DNA of 64,000 bases from Draconibacterium sp. GTDB taxonomy: Bacteria > Bacteroidota > Bacteroidia > Bacteroidales > Prolixibacteraceae. Shown here piece after piece: positions 46,822 through 51,709 of the stretch (position 1 is the first letter of the stretch; the number at the start of each line of letters is the position of its first letter). A program made the position numbers and the translations under genes. The stretch is taken from NCBI GenBank assembly GCA_041393215.1, contig JAWKKP010000018.1, positions 20,675 through 84,674 on the forward strand. Direction: 5' to 3'. The notes below the pieces were generated by a model. The model made no database searches and was not told where the DNA came from. It worked only from the letters and a program-made list of their open reading frames with translations.

Positions 46822-46876
46822 AAAAAACCAAGCCGGAAAAGTGTAGTTGTATACCTGTTTTCCGGCTCGGTTTTTT
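46822..46876. terminator. Bidirectional terminator
   Basis: AAAAAACC-a-AGCCGGAAAA...TTTTCCGGCT-c-GGTTTTTT. Confidence 0.85.
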
Positions 46877-46889
46877 ATCTGGAATAAGT

Positions 46890-47981
46890 TTATTCTTCAT
46901 CCATAATTTCGGTTTGCATACGCACCGAATCTTCATGGATTAACTGGAAAAGGATTTTTACAAAAGTTTCATTTAAATCGAGCTTATTCCCCAGTTTAAC
47001 GCGGTCTTCCATTAACTGGCTCCAGCGGTTAATTTGCAATGCAGTAACATTGTTATCTTTTTTGTAGCGGCCAATTTCTTTTACAATGGCCACCCTCGAA
47101 GAAAGGGTTTCGAGCAGTTCGGCGTCGATGGCATCAATGCGGTTACGCAATACATCCAGTTGGTTTTCGAAATCGGGATTACTTGCCGATTCATGCCGGA
47201 TTACCAAACGGTCAAGCAATTTGGCCAAATCGGCAGGAGTAACTTGCTGGGCGGCATCGCTCATTGCGCAGGAAGGATCGCGGTGCGATTCAATCATTAA
47301 TCCATCCATACCCATATCGAATGCTTTTTGCGAAATTTCGTAAAGCAGTTCGCGTTTTCCTGCAATGTGGCTCGGGTCGCAAATAATGGGTAAGTTTGGC
47401 ATCATCCGGCGAAGTTCAATTACGGTTTGCCAGTTCGGATAATTACGGTAGGGCGAATCCCGGAAAGGGGTAAAACCGCGGTGAATGGCTACAATATTTT
47501 TAATGCCTGCCTGGTAAATTCGCTCAACAGCTCCAAGCCAAAGTTGAGCGTCGGGGTTCACGGGGTTTTTAATCATAACCACCGCATTGGTACCTTTTAC
47601 TACATCGGCAATTTCCTGAACTACAAAAGGACTTGCAGTGGAACGAGCTCCAATCCAGAGAACATCCAGCCCTGCTTTTAACGCTTCTTCGGTATGTTGT
47701 GCGTTTGCCACTTCCGTTCCGACGGGAAATCCTGTTTCTTTCTTTACCATTTGCAGCCATTTCAGGCCGATAGAGCCAACGCCTTCAAACGATCCGGGGC
47801 GGGTTCTGGGTTTCCAAACGCCACCGCGGTAAACAAAAACGCGTTTATCTTTTGCCAGTAACCGGGCAGTTTCCAGTGCCTGTTCTTCCGATTCAAGGCT
47901 GCACGGGCCTGCAATCAATAGCGGGTTGTCGATGTTGGGCAACCAGGCTTTTATCGGATTAATATCCAGTTTTATTGTCAT
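46890..47981 (-). CDS. Bifunctional DAHP synthase / chorismate mutase
   Basis: IAGPCSLES, WKPRTRPGSFEG, WIGARST and CDPSHIAG; C-terminal LRNRIDAIDAELL chorismate mutase domain. Confidence 0.93.
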   Translation of the reverse strand: MTIKLDINPIKAWLPNIDNPLLIAGPCSLESEEQALETARLLAKDKRVFVYRGGVWKPRTRPGSFEGVGSIGLKWLQMVKKETGFPVGTEVANAQHTEEALKAGLDVLWIGARSTASPFVVQEIADVVKGTNAVVMIKNPVNPDAQLWLGAVERIYQAGIKNIVAIHRGFTPFRDSPYRNYPNWQTVIELRRMMPNLPIICDPSHIAGKRELLYEISQKAFDMGMDGLMIESHRDPSCAMSDAAQQVTPADLAKLLDRLVIRHESASNPDFENQLDVLRNRIDAIDAELLETLSSRVAIVKEIGRYKKDNNVTALQINRWSQLMEDRVKLGNKLDLNETFVKILFQLIHEDSVRMQTEIMDEE

Positions 47982-47983
47982 TT

Positions 47984-48880
47984 TTATTTGGTATAAAGTT
48001 TAACTAATCTTTCTTCATTTTTTACAAAGTGAGGGTTTTCACCCTCCAGAATGCCTCGTATTTTATTGGCGTTTTCAATTAATTCCTGAAGTCTCTCGTC
48101 GTCTTTGTTAAACAAACAATCGCGAAACTCCTGCAGGTGTTTGATGTAAACATCAAGCGATTCAACAACGTAATTGCGATTTTGTTGAAAAATAGGATGC
48201 CACATTGAACCGGAACTTTTGGCAAGCCGAACGGTTGAACGAAATCCACCACTTGCCAAATCGAAAATAATTTTACGGTTTTCTTTTGTTTGAACTGCAT
48301 TGGCGAGCGCGTAAGCTGCAGCGTGTGGCAGATGAGATACAAAAGCGGTACTGTGGTCTTGTTCATCGGAAGTCATATAGGCAATGTCCATTCCCAGGTT
48401 TTGGAACATTTTTTCAATCAGCGCCAAATGTTGCGGGCCAGAATCCTGCTGATCACAAATGATGGTAATTTTCCCTTTGAAAAGATCTTCAAGAGCCGCA
48501 GTTGGGCCTGAATTTTCGGTTCCTGACATGGGATGTGCCGGAACAAAATTTCTTCTTCGCGGATGGTCTTTCACCATTTCAACAATTACGCTTTTGGTAG
48601 AGCCCATGTCGGTTACCGTTGTGCTGCTTTTAATCAAGTCGAGCACTTTTGGGAGAACAAACAGTTCTTTATCTACCGGTATGGCAATCACCACAATGTC
48701 GGCATCGGCTACGCCATCTTCCAGCGGAACGATTTTATCAACCAACCCGATTTCAAGTGCTTTTGCAGCATGGTCGCTGTTGGCTTCCACACCAATCAGT
48801 TCGGTTGCAAATTTCGACTTTCGAAGGTCTTTGGCTATTGAACCGCCAATTAATCCTAGTCCGATTATTGTTGTTTTCAT
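47984..48880 (-). CDS. tyrA: Prephenate dehydrogenase
   Basis: IIGLGLIGGS, DMGSTK, HPMSGTE and VSHLPH. True ATG is at 48880, downstream of the attenuator. Confidence 0.93.
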   Translation of the reverse strand: MKTTIIGLGLIGGSIAKDLRKSKFATELIGVEANSDHAAKALEIGLVDKIVPLEDGVADADIVVIAIPVDKELFVLPKVLDLIKSSTTVTDMGSTKSVIVEMVKDHPRRRNFVPAHPMSGTENSGPTAALEDLFKGKITIICDQQDSGPQHLALIEKMFQNLGMDIAYMTSDEQDHSTAFVSHLPHAAAYALANAVQTKENRKIIFDLASGGFRSTVRLAKSSGSMWHPIFQQNRNYVVESLDVYIKHLQEFRDCLFNKDDERLQELIENANKIRGILEGENPHFVKNEERLVKLYTK

Positions 48881-48896
48881 TTTTACATTATTTATC

Positions 48897-48929
48897 AAAA
48901 AAAAAGGCCTCGACTTTTTCGAGACCCTT
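48897..48929 (-). terminator. Attenuator terminator in the tyrA leader
   Basis: AGGGTCTCGA-aaaag-TCGAGGCCTT followed by a long T-tract. Confidence 0.85.
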
Positions 48930-48959
48930 AGGTAAAATATCTTCAATTAACACAATATC

Positions 48960-49034
48960 CTACTTCCTGATCCCGATTTGCGAACCATAATAAAAGTAGA
49001 AGTAGAAAAAAGTATTGTTAATATTCATTTTCAT
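48960..49034 (-). CDS. Phe/Tyr-rich leader peptide MKMNINNTFFYFYFYYGSQIGIRK
   Basis: Eight consecutive Phe/Tyr codons upstream of a terminator and tyrA; -7 element TATATTTG at 49054-49061. Confidence 0.9.
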   Translation of the reverse strand: MKMNINNTFFYFYFYYGSQIGIRK

Positions 49035-49124
49035 TTCACAAGTGTTGTGGCGACAAATATAGATATATATTTTTAAAATGAAACAGAGGAAATAAAATTG
49101 CTTACAATTACTTGTTATTTTCCT

Positions 49125-51593
49125 TTAATTTTTAACAATTTTTTTTGAATAAACCGAACTCCCATTTTCTTTTATGGTAAGAAAATACATTCCTGAAGGC
49201 AAGCCACTTAAATCGAATTCCCGGTGTATTTCACCATCGCTGTCTTCTTGTTGAAGTATAGAAATCTTTTGGCCGGACAAATTGCTTAATTCAAACGTTA
49301 GCTTATCAAAGGTGTTTTTTGAATAAACATTTACATTCAGAATATGATTTGCAGGATTAGGGTAAACCCTGATATTTTTCGGCGATAGTTGTGCTAATGG
49401 CGACGAAACGGTCTTTTGAATCTGAAGATTGTCAATGGTCCAACCCCAGCCATTTGCAAAAGGATCGGAATACAAACGAAAGCGAATCCGAATTGTATCG
49501 CCAGCTTTAAAATTTCCGTTTTCCAGCATGTTGATTTCCCGTTCCATGTACCATTCGGGAATAGCAACCGCTGTTGAATTGTTTTCAGAAATGTTATCGT
49601 TGTATTCCTGTTCCCATGTAGAATTTGCCCTTGAATCGTAACCATCGGTTAAGGGCAACCAGGTTTCTCCTTTGTCCTTACTTCCTTCAACAATTACATA
49701 ATCCCAGAATTCTTCGTCACCGAACTTTGTAAGCACTTCTCCTGGTTCAACCAAAACAATTTCATCGAAAGCCATAATTGCATTATCTAAAAGGATAACA
49801 GGACGTTTTAACTGTGTTGAAAAATTCCAAAAGGCGTTATTTACCTCAGGGCTGGGGTAAGGGTGTGGGCTTTGAAGAGCAGCATTGTTGAATAGCTTTG
49901 CCTGATAAATATCAAAGTCAGAAAGAATAAAATCAGAGGTAGGGTTGTTGAAATCATTAAAGTAAGTTACCACCGGATCGAAAATCTTTTGAATTTTAAA
50001 CGAAAACGATTCATCTTGGGGAATGGTAGTATTGTTTCTGGCTACGGAGGAATCAATTGCAGTTATGCGGTAACTTATTTCGTCGCCGTCATTTAAATCG
50101 TTTAAATCAATATTGAATAGTGAAGAATAGGTTGTTTCCGAGTCCTTTTTCAACCCAAACGGATTTTGCGTAACCCCGTTAATTGAATATTCAACATAAA
50201 CGGTATCAATGCCCAGGTTATCATCTGCATATGTTTCGAGTTTTAAATTTTTTCCATCGGCGATGAAATAAGGAACAGGTGTGTGTACTATCTCTGGCGC
50301 CTCATTATCGGGGCCTATTTTTACTGAACAAAATTCAGACGGTGCATCTCCGGGAAACAGGAAGGTTCTGTTTTGATTATCTGTGGCTGTTATGTAGTAT
50401 TGAATCTCTGGTAATCCGAATTTTGGATAAATCGTAGCAGAAAAATGTGTGCCGTCTTTATTGGGGATGAACAGCAAGGAGTCAACATGATTTTCAAAAC
50501 CAGTTGTTGAATAATAAAGGATTAAAGAACTTGTGTCAAGTCCAAATTCGCTTTCAACAGAAATATTAAAAACAATTGGCTTGATTTCTTCGATGTCTTT
50601 GGGCCTATCAATATTTAGTGTAATTATACTCCAACCAATGTCGGCCAGAATTCCTTTCGTAAGTGGTCCAGGGTCATGCACTGCTTCTCCTCTCCCAATG
50701 GCATGTGTCATCAGTGAATTTCCTGACGAAACAGGATAATTTTCATCATTTAAGTGATAAATGCTCGATCCGCTGTCAAATTTAGAAGGCGCATACAGCT
50801 GTGGACTATTGCCATTATTGTTCCAAATTGCTGATGGACTGTTCGCAAACAATAGCCCGGTAAGGGCACTATACAATTTTGTAGATGGAACATCGTAAAC
50901 CGAAGGATCGACAAGTGGCAATTTATCATTACCTATGACTAGGTAATCGTATGATGTTGCGTCACCGATTTCGTTGAATTCGTACAGCCCCTGATCACCT
51001 GAAACACTAAAGAACCCGTTAAATCCCAGACCATGTGCTATTTCGTGTAATACAACCGTTACAAAATCATAGAGTAAATCGGGAGTTTTACCGTCAGTTC
51101 CATAATACCAGCTCGTGCTTTTATTAAAAGTGGCTTCAATGTCGGGATATGAAATTGAGTTAATATCTGTTTTTGCCTCTTTTTCGGCAAGAGAGATGGG
51201 ATAATACCGATCTTTATGAGGTGCATTTTTAAAATTACTCACATAGTCAGCCGGACTTGCGCTGCCTAAAACACCGGATCTCATTGTTCTCCAATTGGCT
51301 TGCACATATATTGGCACAGGGGATTCAATTATGCTTTCCCAAATGGAAACTGCATATTCGAAAGCCTTTTTAGCCTCATCAGGAAACTGGCTGTAGGTGA
51401 CGATAAAGTCTGATTTTTTTTCACCCGACTTTAAGAGAAATTCTTTTGGAGGTGAAATATATGCCTTTTCAATTTTGTCGGATGCATAACATACAACAGG
51501 TAAAGGGGTTATTTTTTTATACTTATTTCCGCTTTGAGCAACAACTGGGACAGTAAATAATAAAATTAAAAGCGACAGAAGTATTTTGTTCAT
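49125..51593 (-). CDS. T9SS-secreted zinc metalloprotease-like protein, paralogue 1
   Basis: Signal peptide; LHEIAHGLGF and GSSIYHL; C-terminal VYPNPA...SGMYFL CTD. Confidence 0.82.
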   Translation of the reverse strand: MNKILLSLLILLFTVPVVAQSGNKYKKITPLPVVCYASDKIEKAYISPPKEFLLKSGEKKSDFIVTYSQFPDEAKKAFEYAVSIWESIIESPVPIYVQANWRTMRSGVLGSASPADYVSNFKNAPHKDRYYPISLAEKEAKTDINSISYPDIEATFNKSTSWYYGTDGKTPDLLYDFVTVVLHEIAHGLGFNGFFSVSGDQGLYEFNEIGDATSYDYLVIGNDKLPLVDPSVYDVPSTKLYSALTGLLFANSPSAIWNNNGNSPQLYAPSKFDSGSSIYHLNDENYPVSSGNSLMTHAIGRGEAVHDPGPLTKGILADIGWSIITLNIDRPKDIEEIKPIVFNISVESEFGLDTSSLILYYSTTGFENHVDSLLFIPNKDGTHFSATIYPKFGLPEIQYYITATDNQNRTFLFPGDAPSEFCSVKIGPDNEAPEIVHTPVPYFIADGKNLKLETYADDNLGIDTVYVEYSINGVTQNPFGLKKDSETTYSSLFNIDLNDLNDGDEISYRITAIDSSVARNNTTIPQDESFSFKIQKIFDPVVTYFNDFNNPTSDFILSDFDIYQAKLFNNAALQSPHPYPSPEVNNAFWNFSTQLKRPVILLDNAIMAFDEIVLVEPGEVLTKFGDEEFWDYVIVEGSKDKGETWLPLTDGYDSRANSTWEQEYNDNISENNSTAVAIPEWYMEREINMLENGNFKAGDTIRIRFRLYSDPFANGWGWTIDNLQIQKTVSSPLAQLSPKNIRVYPNPANHILNVNVYSKNTFDKLTFELSNLSGQKISILQQEDSDGEIHREFDLSGLPSGMYFLTIKENGSSVYSKKIVKN

Positions 51594-51709
51594 TCTCTGT
51601 TTCTTAATAGAATATAAATACAAATGAAACTGTTTAAATGTTTTCAGCGCAATTTACAGTTTGAATTTGGTTTTAGATGAATAAAATGAAATTCAAATAA
51701 AGCTGCATA

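Follow-up and report, generated by a model that had tools for sequence, protein, structure and literature searches.

A candidate phenylalanine- and tyrosine-reading leader-peptide attenuator upstream of tyrA and the DAHP synthase/chorismate mutase gene of Draconibacterium

The window analysed here, a stretch of 64,000 nucleotides from Draconibacterium sp., carries on its minus strand a tyrA gene that is followed by a gene for a bifunctional DAHP synthase/chorismate mutase and preceded by a short open reading frame and an intrinsic terminator. The features of the locus, in window positions, are as follows:

49061..49054, minus strand: -7 box TATATTTG, which fits the Bacteroidota consensus TAnnTTTG and lies 19 nt 5' of the leader ATG
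49034..48960, minus strand: leader ORF MKMNINNTFFYFYFYYGSQIGIRK, 24 codons and UAG, based on ORF translation and conservation
49010..48987, minus strand: putative regulatory codon run UUU UUC UAC UUC UAC UUU UAU UAU (F F Y F Y F Y Y)
48998..49007, minus strand: region 1, UUCUACUUCU, predicted 5' arm of the 1:2 (anti-antiterminator) helix, within the aromatic codons; partner at 48967..48958
48969..48976, minus strand: region 2a, UCGGGAUC (codons Ile-Gly-Ile), predicted 5' arm of the outer antiterminator helix, whose partner is the terminator left arm
48954..48963, minus strand: region 2b, GUAGGAUAUU, predicted 5' arm of the inner antiterminator helix, which includes the UAG stop (48962..48960)
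48932..48941, minus strand: region 3a, GAUAUUUUAC, predicted 3' arm of the inner antiterminator helix, based on folds and pairing in the alignment
48919..48926, minus strand: region 3b, GGUCUCGA, predicted 3' arm of the outer antiterminator helix and at the same time left arm of the terminator
48929..48897, minus strand: intrinsic terminator from the terminator scan, an 11-bp hairpin (48929..48903) and a U9 tract ending at 48897
47984..48880, minus strand: tyrA, prephenate dehydrogenase, 298 aa; true start at ATG 48880, not at TTG 48946
46890..47981, minus strand: bifunctional DAHP synthase/chorismate mutase, 363 aa, separated from tyrA by a 2-nt gap and translationally adjacent to it
46822..46870, minus strand: terminator-like hairpin CCGAGCCGGAAAA...UUUUCCGGCUUGG UUUUUU, read from the sequence, at the end of the two-gene operon

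The -7 promoter, the 24-residue leader with its FFYFYFYY run and the U-tailed terminator 16 nt before the tyrA ATG had been named in a preliminary description of this DNA, and all of them are present at these positions. The identity of the two downstream genes was verified by domain searches. The first product contains PDH_N and PDH_C domains and scores 345 bits against NCBIfam NF006307 (cut-off 295), and the second contains DAHP_synth_1 and CM_2 domains. The gene beyond the operon-end hairpin lies on the opposite strand. The longest tyrA ORF begins at TTG 48946, within the terminator region. As all homologues start at the MKTTIIGLGLIGG methionine, this ORF is over-extended through the terminator, as had been suspected.

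The promoter call is based on the TAnnTTTG motif and its conservation, which took the place of a sigma-70 promoter scan; the latter found nothing on the minus strand, a null result that is expected in Bacteroidota, for which the scan is uninformative. The box is invariant as TAT[A/C]TTTG in 21 congeners, and a TAnnTTTG box is found in 41 of 44 loci of the family, mostly 18-24 nt 5' of the leader ATG.

The leader ORF holds four Phe and four Tyr codons in a single run of eight. It is located upstream of tyrA in all 21 congeners with enough flanking sequence, and in Draconibacterium, Maribellus and other Prolixibacteraceae the element precedes tyrA at 76 loci, which represent 59 unique sequences. 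Among the loci sampled from other genera of the Prolixibacteraceae, leader ORF and terminator occur together in 44 of 49. The comparison of leaders in related genomes that the preliminary description suggested has been carried out and shows the arrangement to be kept in dozens of species. A scan of the whole genome for short ORFs with aromatic residues at 6 or more of 8 positions and a terminator behind them returned only this element and one weak match.

Within the genus the length of the peptide is conserved and so is its G-S-x-x-G-I tail, a conservation from which a functional peptide could be deduced. We rejected this idea, since across genera the tail follows the terminator arm: its variants (GIRK, GVEQ, QEIG, EETES and FDER) change whenever the arm changes, indicating that the constraint acts on the RNA and not on the peptide. 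In the alignment the third codon positions of the tail are invariant where they are paired. The last codons of the leader appear to be set by the requirement that they resemble the right arm of the terminator, so that the RNA constrains the peptide.

The terminator, AAGGGUCUCGA-AAAAG-UCGAGGCCUUU (48929..48903), forms 11 pairs with a dG of -14.4 kcal/mol, and from the end of its U run at 48897 to the tyrA ATG the distance is exactly 16 nt. As MAFFT misregistered the right arm, terminators of the relatives were scored sequence by sequence; hairpin and U tract were detected in all 59 unique sequences, with dG values of -13.6 to -18.8.

The 171-nt leader folds with a z-score of -2.88 relative to dinucleotide shuffles. 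In the minimum free energy folds UUCUACUUCU pairs with GGAAGUAGGA and a second helix of 6 bp is formed, so that the 1:2 helix joins the aromatic codons to the stop-codon region. In an alignment of 58 sequences 92.2% of the cells of this helix are paired, a value that drops to 39-63% upon sliding of the partner. Two-sided, compensatory changes occur in 8 of its 16 pairs (28 cells), for example between a Phe codon (UUC/UUU) and the stop codon (UAG/UAA), and the covariation score was reached by none of 500 shuffles.

The preliminary description had proposed an antiterminator helix that could be extended into the left arm of the terminator. The pairing itself stands, as an inner helix of 10 bp (GUAGGAUAU(U)/(G)AUAUUUUAC, 48963..48954 with 48941..48932), whereas the simple extension does not: the left arm of the terminator is predicted to be sequestered by a separate outer helix of UCGGGAUC (48976..48969) with GGUCUCGA (48926..48919), the two helices lying around a 5x5 internal loop. 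This structure was predicted in 21 of 21 and then in 59 of 59 sequences by constrained folds in which the ribosome footprint was masked, the footprint reaching ~12-15 nt downstream of the A site according to values from E. coli. In the alignment 92.1% of the antiterminator cells are paired (outer helix 91%, inner helix 93%) compared to 31-55% when slid. The UAG stop is positioned within the 5' arm of the inner helix, 6 nt past the 5' arm of the outer one, and this placement is the same throughout the alignment.

Since 30-60% of region-2 shuffles still pair at least 6 nt of the terminator left arm, folding of a single sequence is weak evidence on its own. Left-arm pairing being a poor single-sequence test, we relied on energy differences and on comparative tests. 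The native antiterminator is ~6 kcal/mol more stable than the mean of the region-2 shuffles. Changes in the inner helix are mostly one-sided (G-U/A-U); within the genus almost no two-sided changes were seen in the antiterminator and its covariation score was reached by 99 of 500 shuffles; the columns vary too little for a significant result. We sampled 35 genera and compared cognate with non-cognate duplexes. On average the leader tail pairs with its own terminator arm at -10.35 kcal/mol and with the arms of other genera at -8.01 kcal/mol, and the cognate mean was reached by none of 5000 permutations.

Folds and alignments support three predicted, mutually exclusive RNA structures, namely the 1:2 helix, the antiterminator and the terminator, and we propose that they operate as follows. 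Transcription would start a few bases past the -7 box. As it emerges, the 24-codon leader would be translated. When Phe-tRNA and Tyr-tRNA are both plentiful, the ribosome would proceed to the UAG and, as the stop lies within the 5' half of the antiterminator, would cover UCGGGAUC and GUAGGAUAUU; the terminator hairpin would then form and RNA polymerase would halt 16 nt before tyrA. When either charged tRNA is scarce, the ribosome would stall in FFYFYFYY and keep region 1 off region 2. The freed region 2 could then pair with GAUAUUUUAC and with the left arm GGUCUCGA, giving two helices of about -14 to -17 kcal/mol, upon which the terminator would not form and tyrA and the DAHP synthase/chorismate mutase gene would be transcribed. 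In a leader without a ribosome, region 1 would pair with region 2 and the terminator would form. The logic of such a switch is reasonable: TyrA would be needed upon a shortage of Tyr, and more flux through DAHP synthase/chorismate mutase upon a shortage of Phe or Tyr. If the mechanism holds, disruption of UCGGGAUC should be compensable by changes in GGUCUCGA/UCGAGGCC. We know of no demonstration of transcription-translation coupling in Bacteroidota.

The ribosome-stalling attenuator that the preliminary description had placed over tyrA and the DAHP synthase/chorismate mutase gene fits all the sequence-level tests that were run. We infer translation of the leader, stalling of the ribosome and the response to Phe and Tyr from the sequence and its relatives, and we consider the element to be a classical ribosome-mediated leader-peptide transcription attenuator reading Phe and Tyr codons with a probability of roughly four in five.

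The attenuator could be just as described and yet respond in practice to one amino acid, e.g. Tyr, or to whichever charged tRNA becomes limiting first, in which case dual sensing would be nominal. Indeed, the first gene of the operon is tyrA, while pheA is unlinked to it and carries no leader in this genome or in the congeners examined, where a -7 box lies ~28 nt before the pheA ATG; moreover, the ratio of F to Y drifts among species (e.g. YFYFYFYY, FYYFYFYF and YFYYYFYF). Nevertheless, Phe and Tyr codons are both retained in each of ~100 leaders, none of which is pure Phe or pure Tyr, the second gene of the operon serves both branches, and in the fold models stalling at any codon of the aromatic run frees region 2. 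We regard a response to one amino acid as unlikely.

Very unlikely, in our judgment, is that the switch is set by a factor acting in trans (a TRAP- or PyrR-type protein, a small ligand or uncharged tRNA in the manner of a T-box) and that the ORF is incidental. The N-terminal part of the peptide does show less conservation than the RNA segments. An incidental ORF, however, does not agree with indels that are all of 3, 6 or 9 nt among the unique relatives and so keep the frame, with a start codon whose spacing from the -7 box is fixed, with a stop codon that always falls within region 2, or with a run whose positions remain aromatic across species through non-synonymous F/Y/W swaps as well as synonymous codon swaps. 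In addition, apart from the weak match to Phe_leader described below, no riboswitch or T-box of Rfam was matched at E <= 10.

A regulation that is mainly translational, or that acts via Rho or mRNA stability, with the hairpins modulating for instance the initiation of tyrA, gains something from the 16 nt that separate the terminator from the tyrA start and from the dependence of Bacteroidota initiation on unstructured A-rich leaders. Yet in all relatives the hairpin and U9 tract have the form of a canonical intrinsic terminator, and the tyrA start region is AU-rich, unpaired in every fold and clear of the terminator hairpin, so that we find this explanation hardly credible. That the ORF encodes a functional hydrophobic micro-protein, with the hairpin as its terminator or as an insulator and with a separate promoter for tyrA, is extremely improbable, for despite the conserved peptide length and the tail kept within the genus, just 16 nt without a -7 box lie between the U tract and the tyrA ATG, the tail varies with the terminator arm across genera while its paired third codon positions are invariant, and the genomic context is always tyrA.

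The attenuator reading Phe and Tyr codons would stand over the only DAHP synthase of the organism: no second one was found in the genome, where the other PF00793 match is KdsA and PF01474 has no match. A second, stand-alone chorismate mutase domain is present. The genome probably uses leader attenuation elsewhere too, as trpE is preceded by a WWW leader MKLLKSNNWWWHSNFLQNREEK with a strong hairpin and ilvD by a leader rich in I, L and V; for the leaders of trpE, ilvD and cysK there was no relevant Rfam match at E <= 0.01.

The consensus run of the Prolixibacteraceae leaders is FYYWFYYF. By a hand count a single central Trp codon is found in 26 of 34 other genera, and in Draconibacterium itself it is mostly lost. 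It is therefore conceivable, and we put this forward tentatively as rather less probable than its opposite, that the ancestral leader of the Prolixibacteraceae senses Phe, Tyr and Trp and gates the sole DAHP synthase, having arisen when a leader-pheA-...-tyrA operon split and the leader stayed with tyrA and the DAHP synthase/chorismate mutase gene. If so, the leader would be a single checkpoint where the shikimate pathway begins, and in Draconibacterium, with its Trp codon mostly lost, entry into the pathway that also yields the precursors of Trp, folate and quinones would hang on the status of Phe and Tyr and on basal read-through.

Whatever its ancestry, the present analysis gives a firm annotation to a regulatory element that was unannotated and corrects the start of tyrA to ATG 48880. 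The ~100 leaders documented from 35 genera are enough to build a covariance model and, to our knowledge, this class of aromatic attenuator of the Bacteroidota is absent from Rfam and mentioned once in the literature. As the sole DAHP synthase is placed behind a putative Phe/Tyr-sensing terminator, whereas pheA would be constitutive at the level of transcription, cross-pathway effects on the supply of Trp are predicted.

With respect to known systems, a search of Rfam 15, including Bacteroid-trp, over 48700..49300 at E <= 10 gave chance-level matches only, besides RF01859 Phe_leader as the best match (21.6 bits, E = 0.39), whose alignment covers the terminator and the beginning of the ORF. As the gathering score of that family is 55, the tyrA leader falls outside it. 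The layout nevertheless resembles that of E. coli pheL-pheA and of trpL, hisL, leuL and thrL, in that there are four regions, with the regulatory codons in region 1 and the stop at region 2, and the 2:3 antiterminator overlaps the 3:4 terminator as in the pheL class. Unlike pheL, the tyrA leader would read both Phe and Tyr, has no Shine-Dalgarno sequence and forms a predicted antiterminator of two helices with a 5x5 loop.

In E. coli the thr leader (Thr/Ile) and the ilvGMEDA leader (Leu/Val/Ile) carry interleaved codons, and a shortage of any one of these amino acids relieves termination. Like the tyrA leader they are multivalent, but they differ from it in amino acids, phylum and sequence, and there is no homology; the interleaving of two amino acids, which the preliminary description held to be notable, is textbook. 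The Bacteroid-trp leader, reportedly described by Weinberg in 2010 and included in Rfam, is likewise a leader-peptide attenuator of the Bacteroidota, for a different amino acid and operon.

Closer likenesses are found before pheA. In sister families of the Bacteroidales similar leaders (MHNNSANTFFYFYFYFFGKIE, MKFQSTYYFYFFWTILRNRD and MSTRSFSYFFYFWFEAFK) precede this gene, and in Flavobacterium psychrophilum the pheA-aspC3 leader MNTNNTFYSNNSFYFYWNIGRDCYMVI shows condition-dependent read-through under minimal-nutrient conditions (PMC9723704; 2021, ISME Commun, Table S7). The F. psychrophilum leader and the tyrA leader share the phylum, a promoter of the -7 type, a terminator that precedes genes for aromatic amino acids and a short ORF in which an N-N-T/S motif leads into alternating F/Y codons, the N-N-T-F-(F/Y) resemblance being judged by eye. 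They differ in that the F. psychrophilum leader also contains W and precedes pheA-aspC3, whereas that of Draconibacterium is a compact, strictly interleaved block of eight codons without Trp before tyrA and the DAHP synthase/chorismate mutase gene. As multivalent leaders are textbook and leader attenuation in Bacteroidota has been published, for a Trp leader and for ilvE, hisG and pheA leaders of F. psychrophilum (PMC9723704), the reasons given earlier for novelty, including the occurrence in a phylum poor in Shine-Dalgarno sequences, were overstated. The understanding of attenuation itself is unchanged; the element is real, well conserved and known in kind.

The predicted Phe/Tyr leader-peptide attenuator lies before tyrA on contig C18 of a 5.6-Mb genome that is 99.99% complete. 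The elements listed in the preliminary description (a -7 box, a 24-aa leader and a terminator 16 nt before tyrA) are all present on the minus strand, and the features of the region are as follows:

49061..49054, minus strand: Bacteroidota-type -7 box TATATTTG, read from the sequence
49034 (ATG, 19 nt past the -7 box), minus strand: leader ORF of 24 codons, MKMNINNTFFYFYFYYGSQIGIRK, with its UAG stop at 48962..48960
48929..48903, minus strand: terminator hairpin AAGGGUCUCGA-AAAAG-UCGAGGCCUUU, from the terminator scan, U run to 48897
48880, minus strand: ATG of tyrA, 16 nt beyond the U run
46890..47981, minus strand: DAHP_synth_1 and CM_2 fusion (DAHPS/CM), 363 aa, starting 2 bases past the tyrA stop
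about 46822..46870, minus strand: terminator-like hairpin 3' of DAHPS/CM

As these elements follow one another from the promoter to DAHPS/CM, a hairpin closes the series and the gene beyond it has the opposite orientation, the transcription unit consists of promoter, leader, terminator, tyrA and DAHPS/CM. The spacer between the leader ORF and the terminator hairpin is AU-rich. The domains of the tyrA product are PDH_N and PDH_C, and against the NCBIfam equivalog for prephenate dehydrogenase it scores 345 bits, above the cut-off of 295. The longest tyrA ORF begins at TTG (48946), inside the terminator, and since all homologues begin at the MKTTIIGLGLIGG methionine, the earlier remark that this ORF had been over-extended through the terminator was right. 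Upstream, a gene for an 832-aa protein (49125-51623, minus strand) that has a T9SS sorting domain at its C terminus (Por_Secre_tail) stops 64 nt short of the -7 box, and a scan of this gap found no obvious terminator.

The closest tyrA loci are recorded as Draconibacterium, Maribellus and uncultured Prolixibacteraceae. Among the congeners, all 21 that offer sufficient flanking sequence carry the leader before tyrA, and with public genomes included it occurs in 76 loci representing 59 unique sequences, every one of which has the terminator hairpin (dG -13.6 to -18.8), with U-A, U-G and C-G alternating at its variable positions. The comparison of related leaders proposed in the preliminary description shows the arrangement to be kept across Prolixibacteraceae, where 119 of the 121 genomes sampled have tyrA: 49 loci were picked to cover the other genera, and in 44 of them an ORF with 6 or more aromatics in a stretch of 9 residues lies about 145-250 nt ahead of tyrA and precedes a terminator; most of the remaining loci have weaker versions. 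A TAnnTTTG box precedes the leader ATG in 41 of these 44, mostly by 18-24 nt. Within the leader ORF of relatives, indels are of 3, 6 or 9 nt, the N-terminal residues vary freely and the regulatory run stays aromatic while its codons interchange among UUU, UUC, UAU, UAC and UGG; these features point to a translated ORF rather than an accidental one. In some relatives (loci L075, L015, L034, L035 and L069) insertions of 90-250 nt separate the attenuator U tract from tyrA, that of L075 containing repeated CCTTAGGGT/ACCCTAAGG units and resembling a small repetitive element.

Folded without a ribosome, the leader forms a long hairpin by pairing of the aromatic codons UUCUACUUCU (region 1; 49007..48998) with GGAAGUAGGA (48967..48958, in region 2) around the stop codon, and the terminator also forms; the fold of the 171-nt leader has z = -2.88. 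In an alignment of 58 sequences this 1:2 structure is 92.2% paired vs 39-63% with the partners slid, and 8 of its 16 pairs are altered on both sides (28 cells), as where C/U at the third position of a Phe codon changes together with G/A at the second position of the stop. None of 500 shuffles reached the covariation score, to be read with the caveat that the aligned sequences are related; the more robust pair-count measures also exceeded the shuffles (3/500).

Masking the footprint of a stalled ribosome at each aromatic codon and folding the nascent RNA up to the terminator loop gave the same two-helix antiterminator in 21 of 21 and then in 59 of 59 sequences. The inner helix, GUAGGAUAUU with GAUAUUUUAC, is the pairing proposed in the preliminary description; pairing with the terminator left arm, which had been regarded as an extension of that helix, is in these folds a separate outer helix of UCGGGAUC, which supplies the codons Ile-Gly-Ile, and GGUCUCGA, set apart from the inner one by a 5x5 internal loop. 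The UAG stop sits within the inner 5' arm, 6 nt past the outer 5' arm. In the window the antiterminator has -17.2 kcal/mol, or -13.8 with a ribosome on the last Tyr codon, and the terminator -14.4.

We propose that when charged tRNAs are ample the ribosome would proceed to the stop, cover both 5' arms and block the antiterminator, leading to termination, and that when charged tRNA-Phe or tRNA-Tyr is scarce it would stall in region 1, leaving region 2 free to form the antiterminator and allow read-through. With no translation, the 1:2 and terminator helices would both form and transcription would terminate. What is observed directly is the set of leader elements with their conservation and co-variation; the attenuator fits the classical leader-peptide model in every respect, and we infer translation, stalling and the physiological response. 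Comparative evidence lends good support to the ribosome-stalling mechanism first suggested for this element.

Within the genus the antiterminator shows conservation rather than covariation: 92.1% of it is paired vs 31-55% slid, most changes affect one side of a pair (G-U to A-U or G-C), and covariation did not exceed the shuffle control. Folding of single sequences is not very specific, at least 6 terminator-arm bases still pairing in 30-60% of region 2 shuffles, and the native antiterminator is about 6 kcal/mol better than their mean. For these two reasons the comparison was extended to the whole family, in which the terminator arm varies (GGUCUCGA, GGUCCCGA, GGUUCCG, GGUCUCC, CCUCUGAG, GCCUCAC and others) and the segment from the run to the stop varies in step with it (CGGGAUC, CGGGGUC, CGGAAUC, GGAGAUC, CUCAGGGG, GGUGAG). 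With 35 genera, one representative each, the duplex of this segment with its own arm averaged -10.35 kcal/mol vs -8.01 with the arms of other genera, and 0 of 5000 permutations reached the cognate mean. The peptide tail shifts accordingly among genera (GIRK, GVEQ, QEIGQ, EETES, FDER), and this variation along with the terminator arm argues that in the tail the RNA rather than the peptide is under selection.

In the same 35-genus set, 26 of the 34 other genera have one central Trp codon in the run (FYYWFYYF). The codon is mostly absent from Draconibacterium, and the window leader has none. In this genus Tyr or Phe replaces the central Trp in most species and Cys in a few (YFCFYFYY).

No DAHP synthase besides the DAHPS/CM fusion was detectable in the genome, which has no type II enzyme; an NCBIfam equivalog identifies the other PF00793 match as a KDO8P synthase. 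The genome has a second CM_2 domain, which stands alone. The pheA gene (PF00800; G000:C32:23895, locus L031), encoding a 280-aa prephenate dehydratase without a chorismate mutase domain, is on another contig, unlinked from tyrA. Here and in the congeners examined it has a -7 box about 28 nt before its ATG and no leader peptide. Three other Bacteroidales families have an F/Y(/W)-rich leader before pheA (MHNNSANTFFYFYFYFFGKIE, MKFQSTYYFYFFWTILRNRD, MSTRSFSYFFYFWFEAFK), with tyrA downstream of an aminotransferase gene. As pheA is leaderless here and preceded by a leader there, the Prolixibacteraceae arrangement looks like a split operon whose leader was retained by tyrA-DAHPS/CM.

Other candidate leaders occur in this genome. 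On C12 (minus strand; locus L120) the short ORF MKLLKSNNWWWHSNFLQNREEK, in which three Trp codons follow one another, and a strong hairpin of dG -25.6 precede the anthranilate synthase component I gene trpE by 53 nt (leader about 212230-212330, ATG 212170); it looks like a Trp leader attenuator and has no Rfam match at E <= 0.01. On C20 (minus strand; locus L121) the Ile/Leu/Val-rich ORF MKLLSTIVLVLVVVILEFSGRG and a hairpin of dG -18.8, likely a branched-chain leader, precede a 609-aa ilvD-like gene (ATG 66647). Judging from these two leaders, attenuation would be in general use in this organism. On C17 (plus strand; locus L122) the short ORF MKNTNKNKMNCCCNSEKGRVFLSVND at about 40394, with three Cys codons in a row, and a terminator precede a PALP-family (cysK-like) gene (ATG 40560) by 33 nt. 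This leader may sense cysteine, a specificity for which there is far less documentation than for Trp, His or Phe. The short ORFs MKNISFYILMNCMACSMMCMCNKYISVQKEKRRY and MLNSFVNKKKGACTMMCMCST, on C23 (about 5369, plus) and C49 (minus), share an MMCMC motif, and each has a hairpin and U tract after it; the downstream genes start at C23:5531 and C49:8422, one being glutamyl-tRNA reductase-like and the other a DUF4395 gene.

The interest of the element is local: a tyrA-proximal leader with a leaderless pheA, predicted control of the only DAHP synthase, a lost Trp codon, and a clean demonstration that the terminator shapes the last codons of the leader. Its two interleaved amino acids, initially considered notable, are no novelty, as multivalent leaders with interleaved codons are textbook cases, among them thr (Thr/Ile) and ilvGMEDA (Leu/Val/Ile). 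The tyrA leader would work like pheL and yet is not a member of the Phe_leader family, its best Rfam match, which it hits with 21.6 bits vs a gathering score of 55 (E = 0.39). Nor is the phylum remarkable, as had been thought, since leader attenuation in Bacteroidota is already published. The B. thetaiotaomicron transcriptome paper goes no further than noting that some sORFs recall leader peptides. Guerin et al. 2021 (PMC9723704) mapped a known Bacteroidetes Trp leader and, in Flavobacterium psychrophilum, proposed leader-peptide elements without Rfam matches before ilvE, hisG and pheA-aspC3, the last with the leader MNTNNTFYSNNSFYFYWNIGRDCYMVI and read-through in minimal-nutrient conditions.
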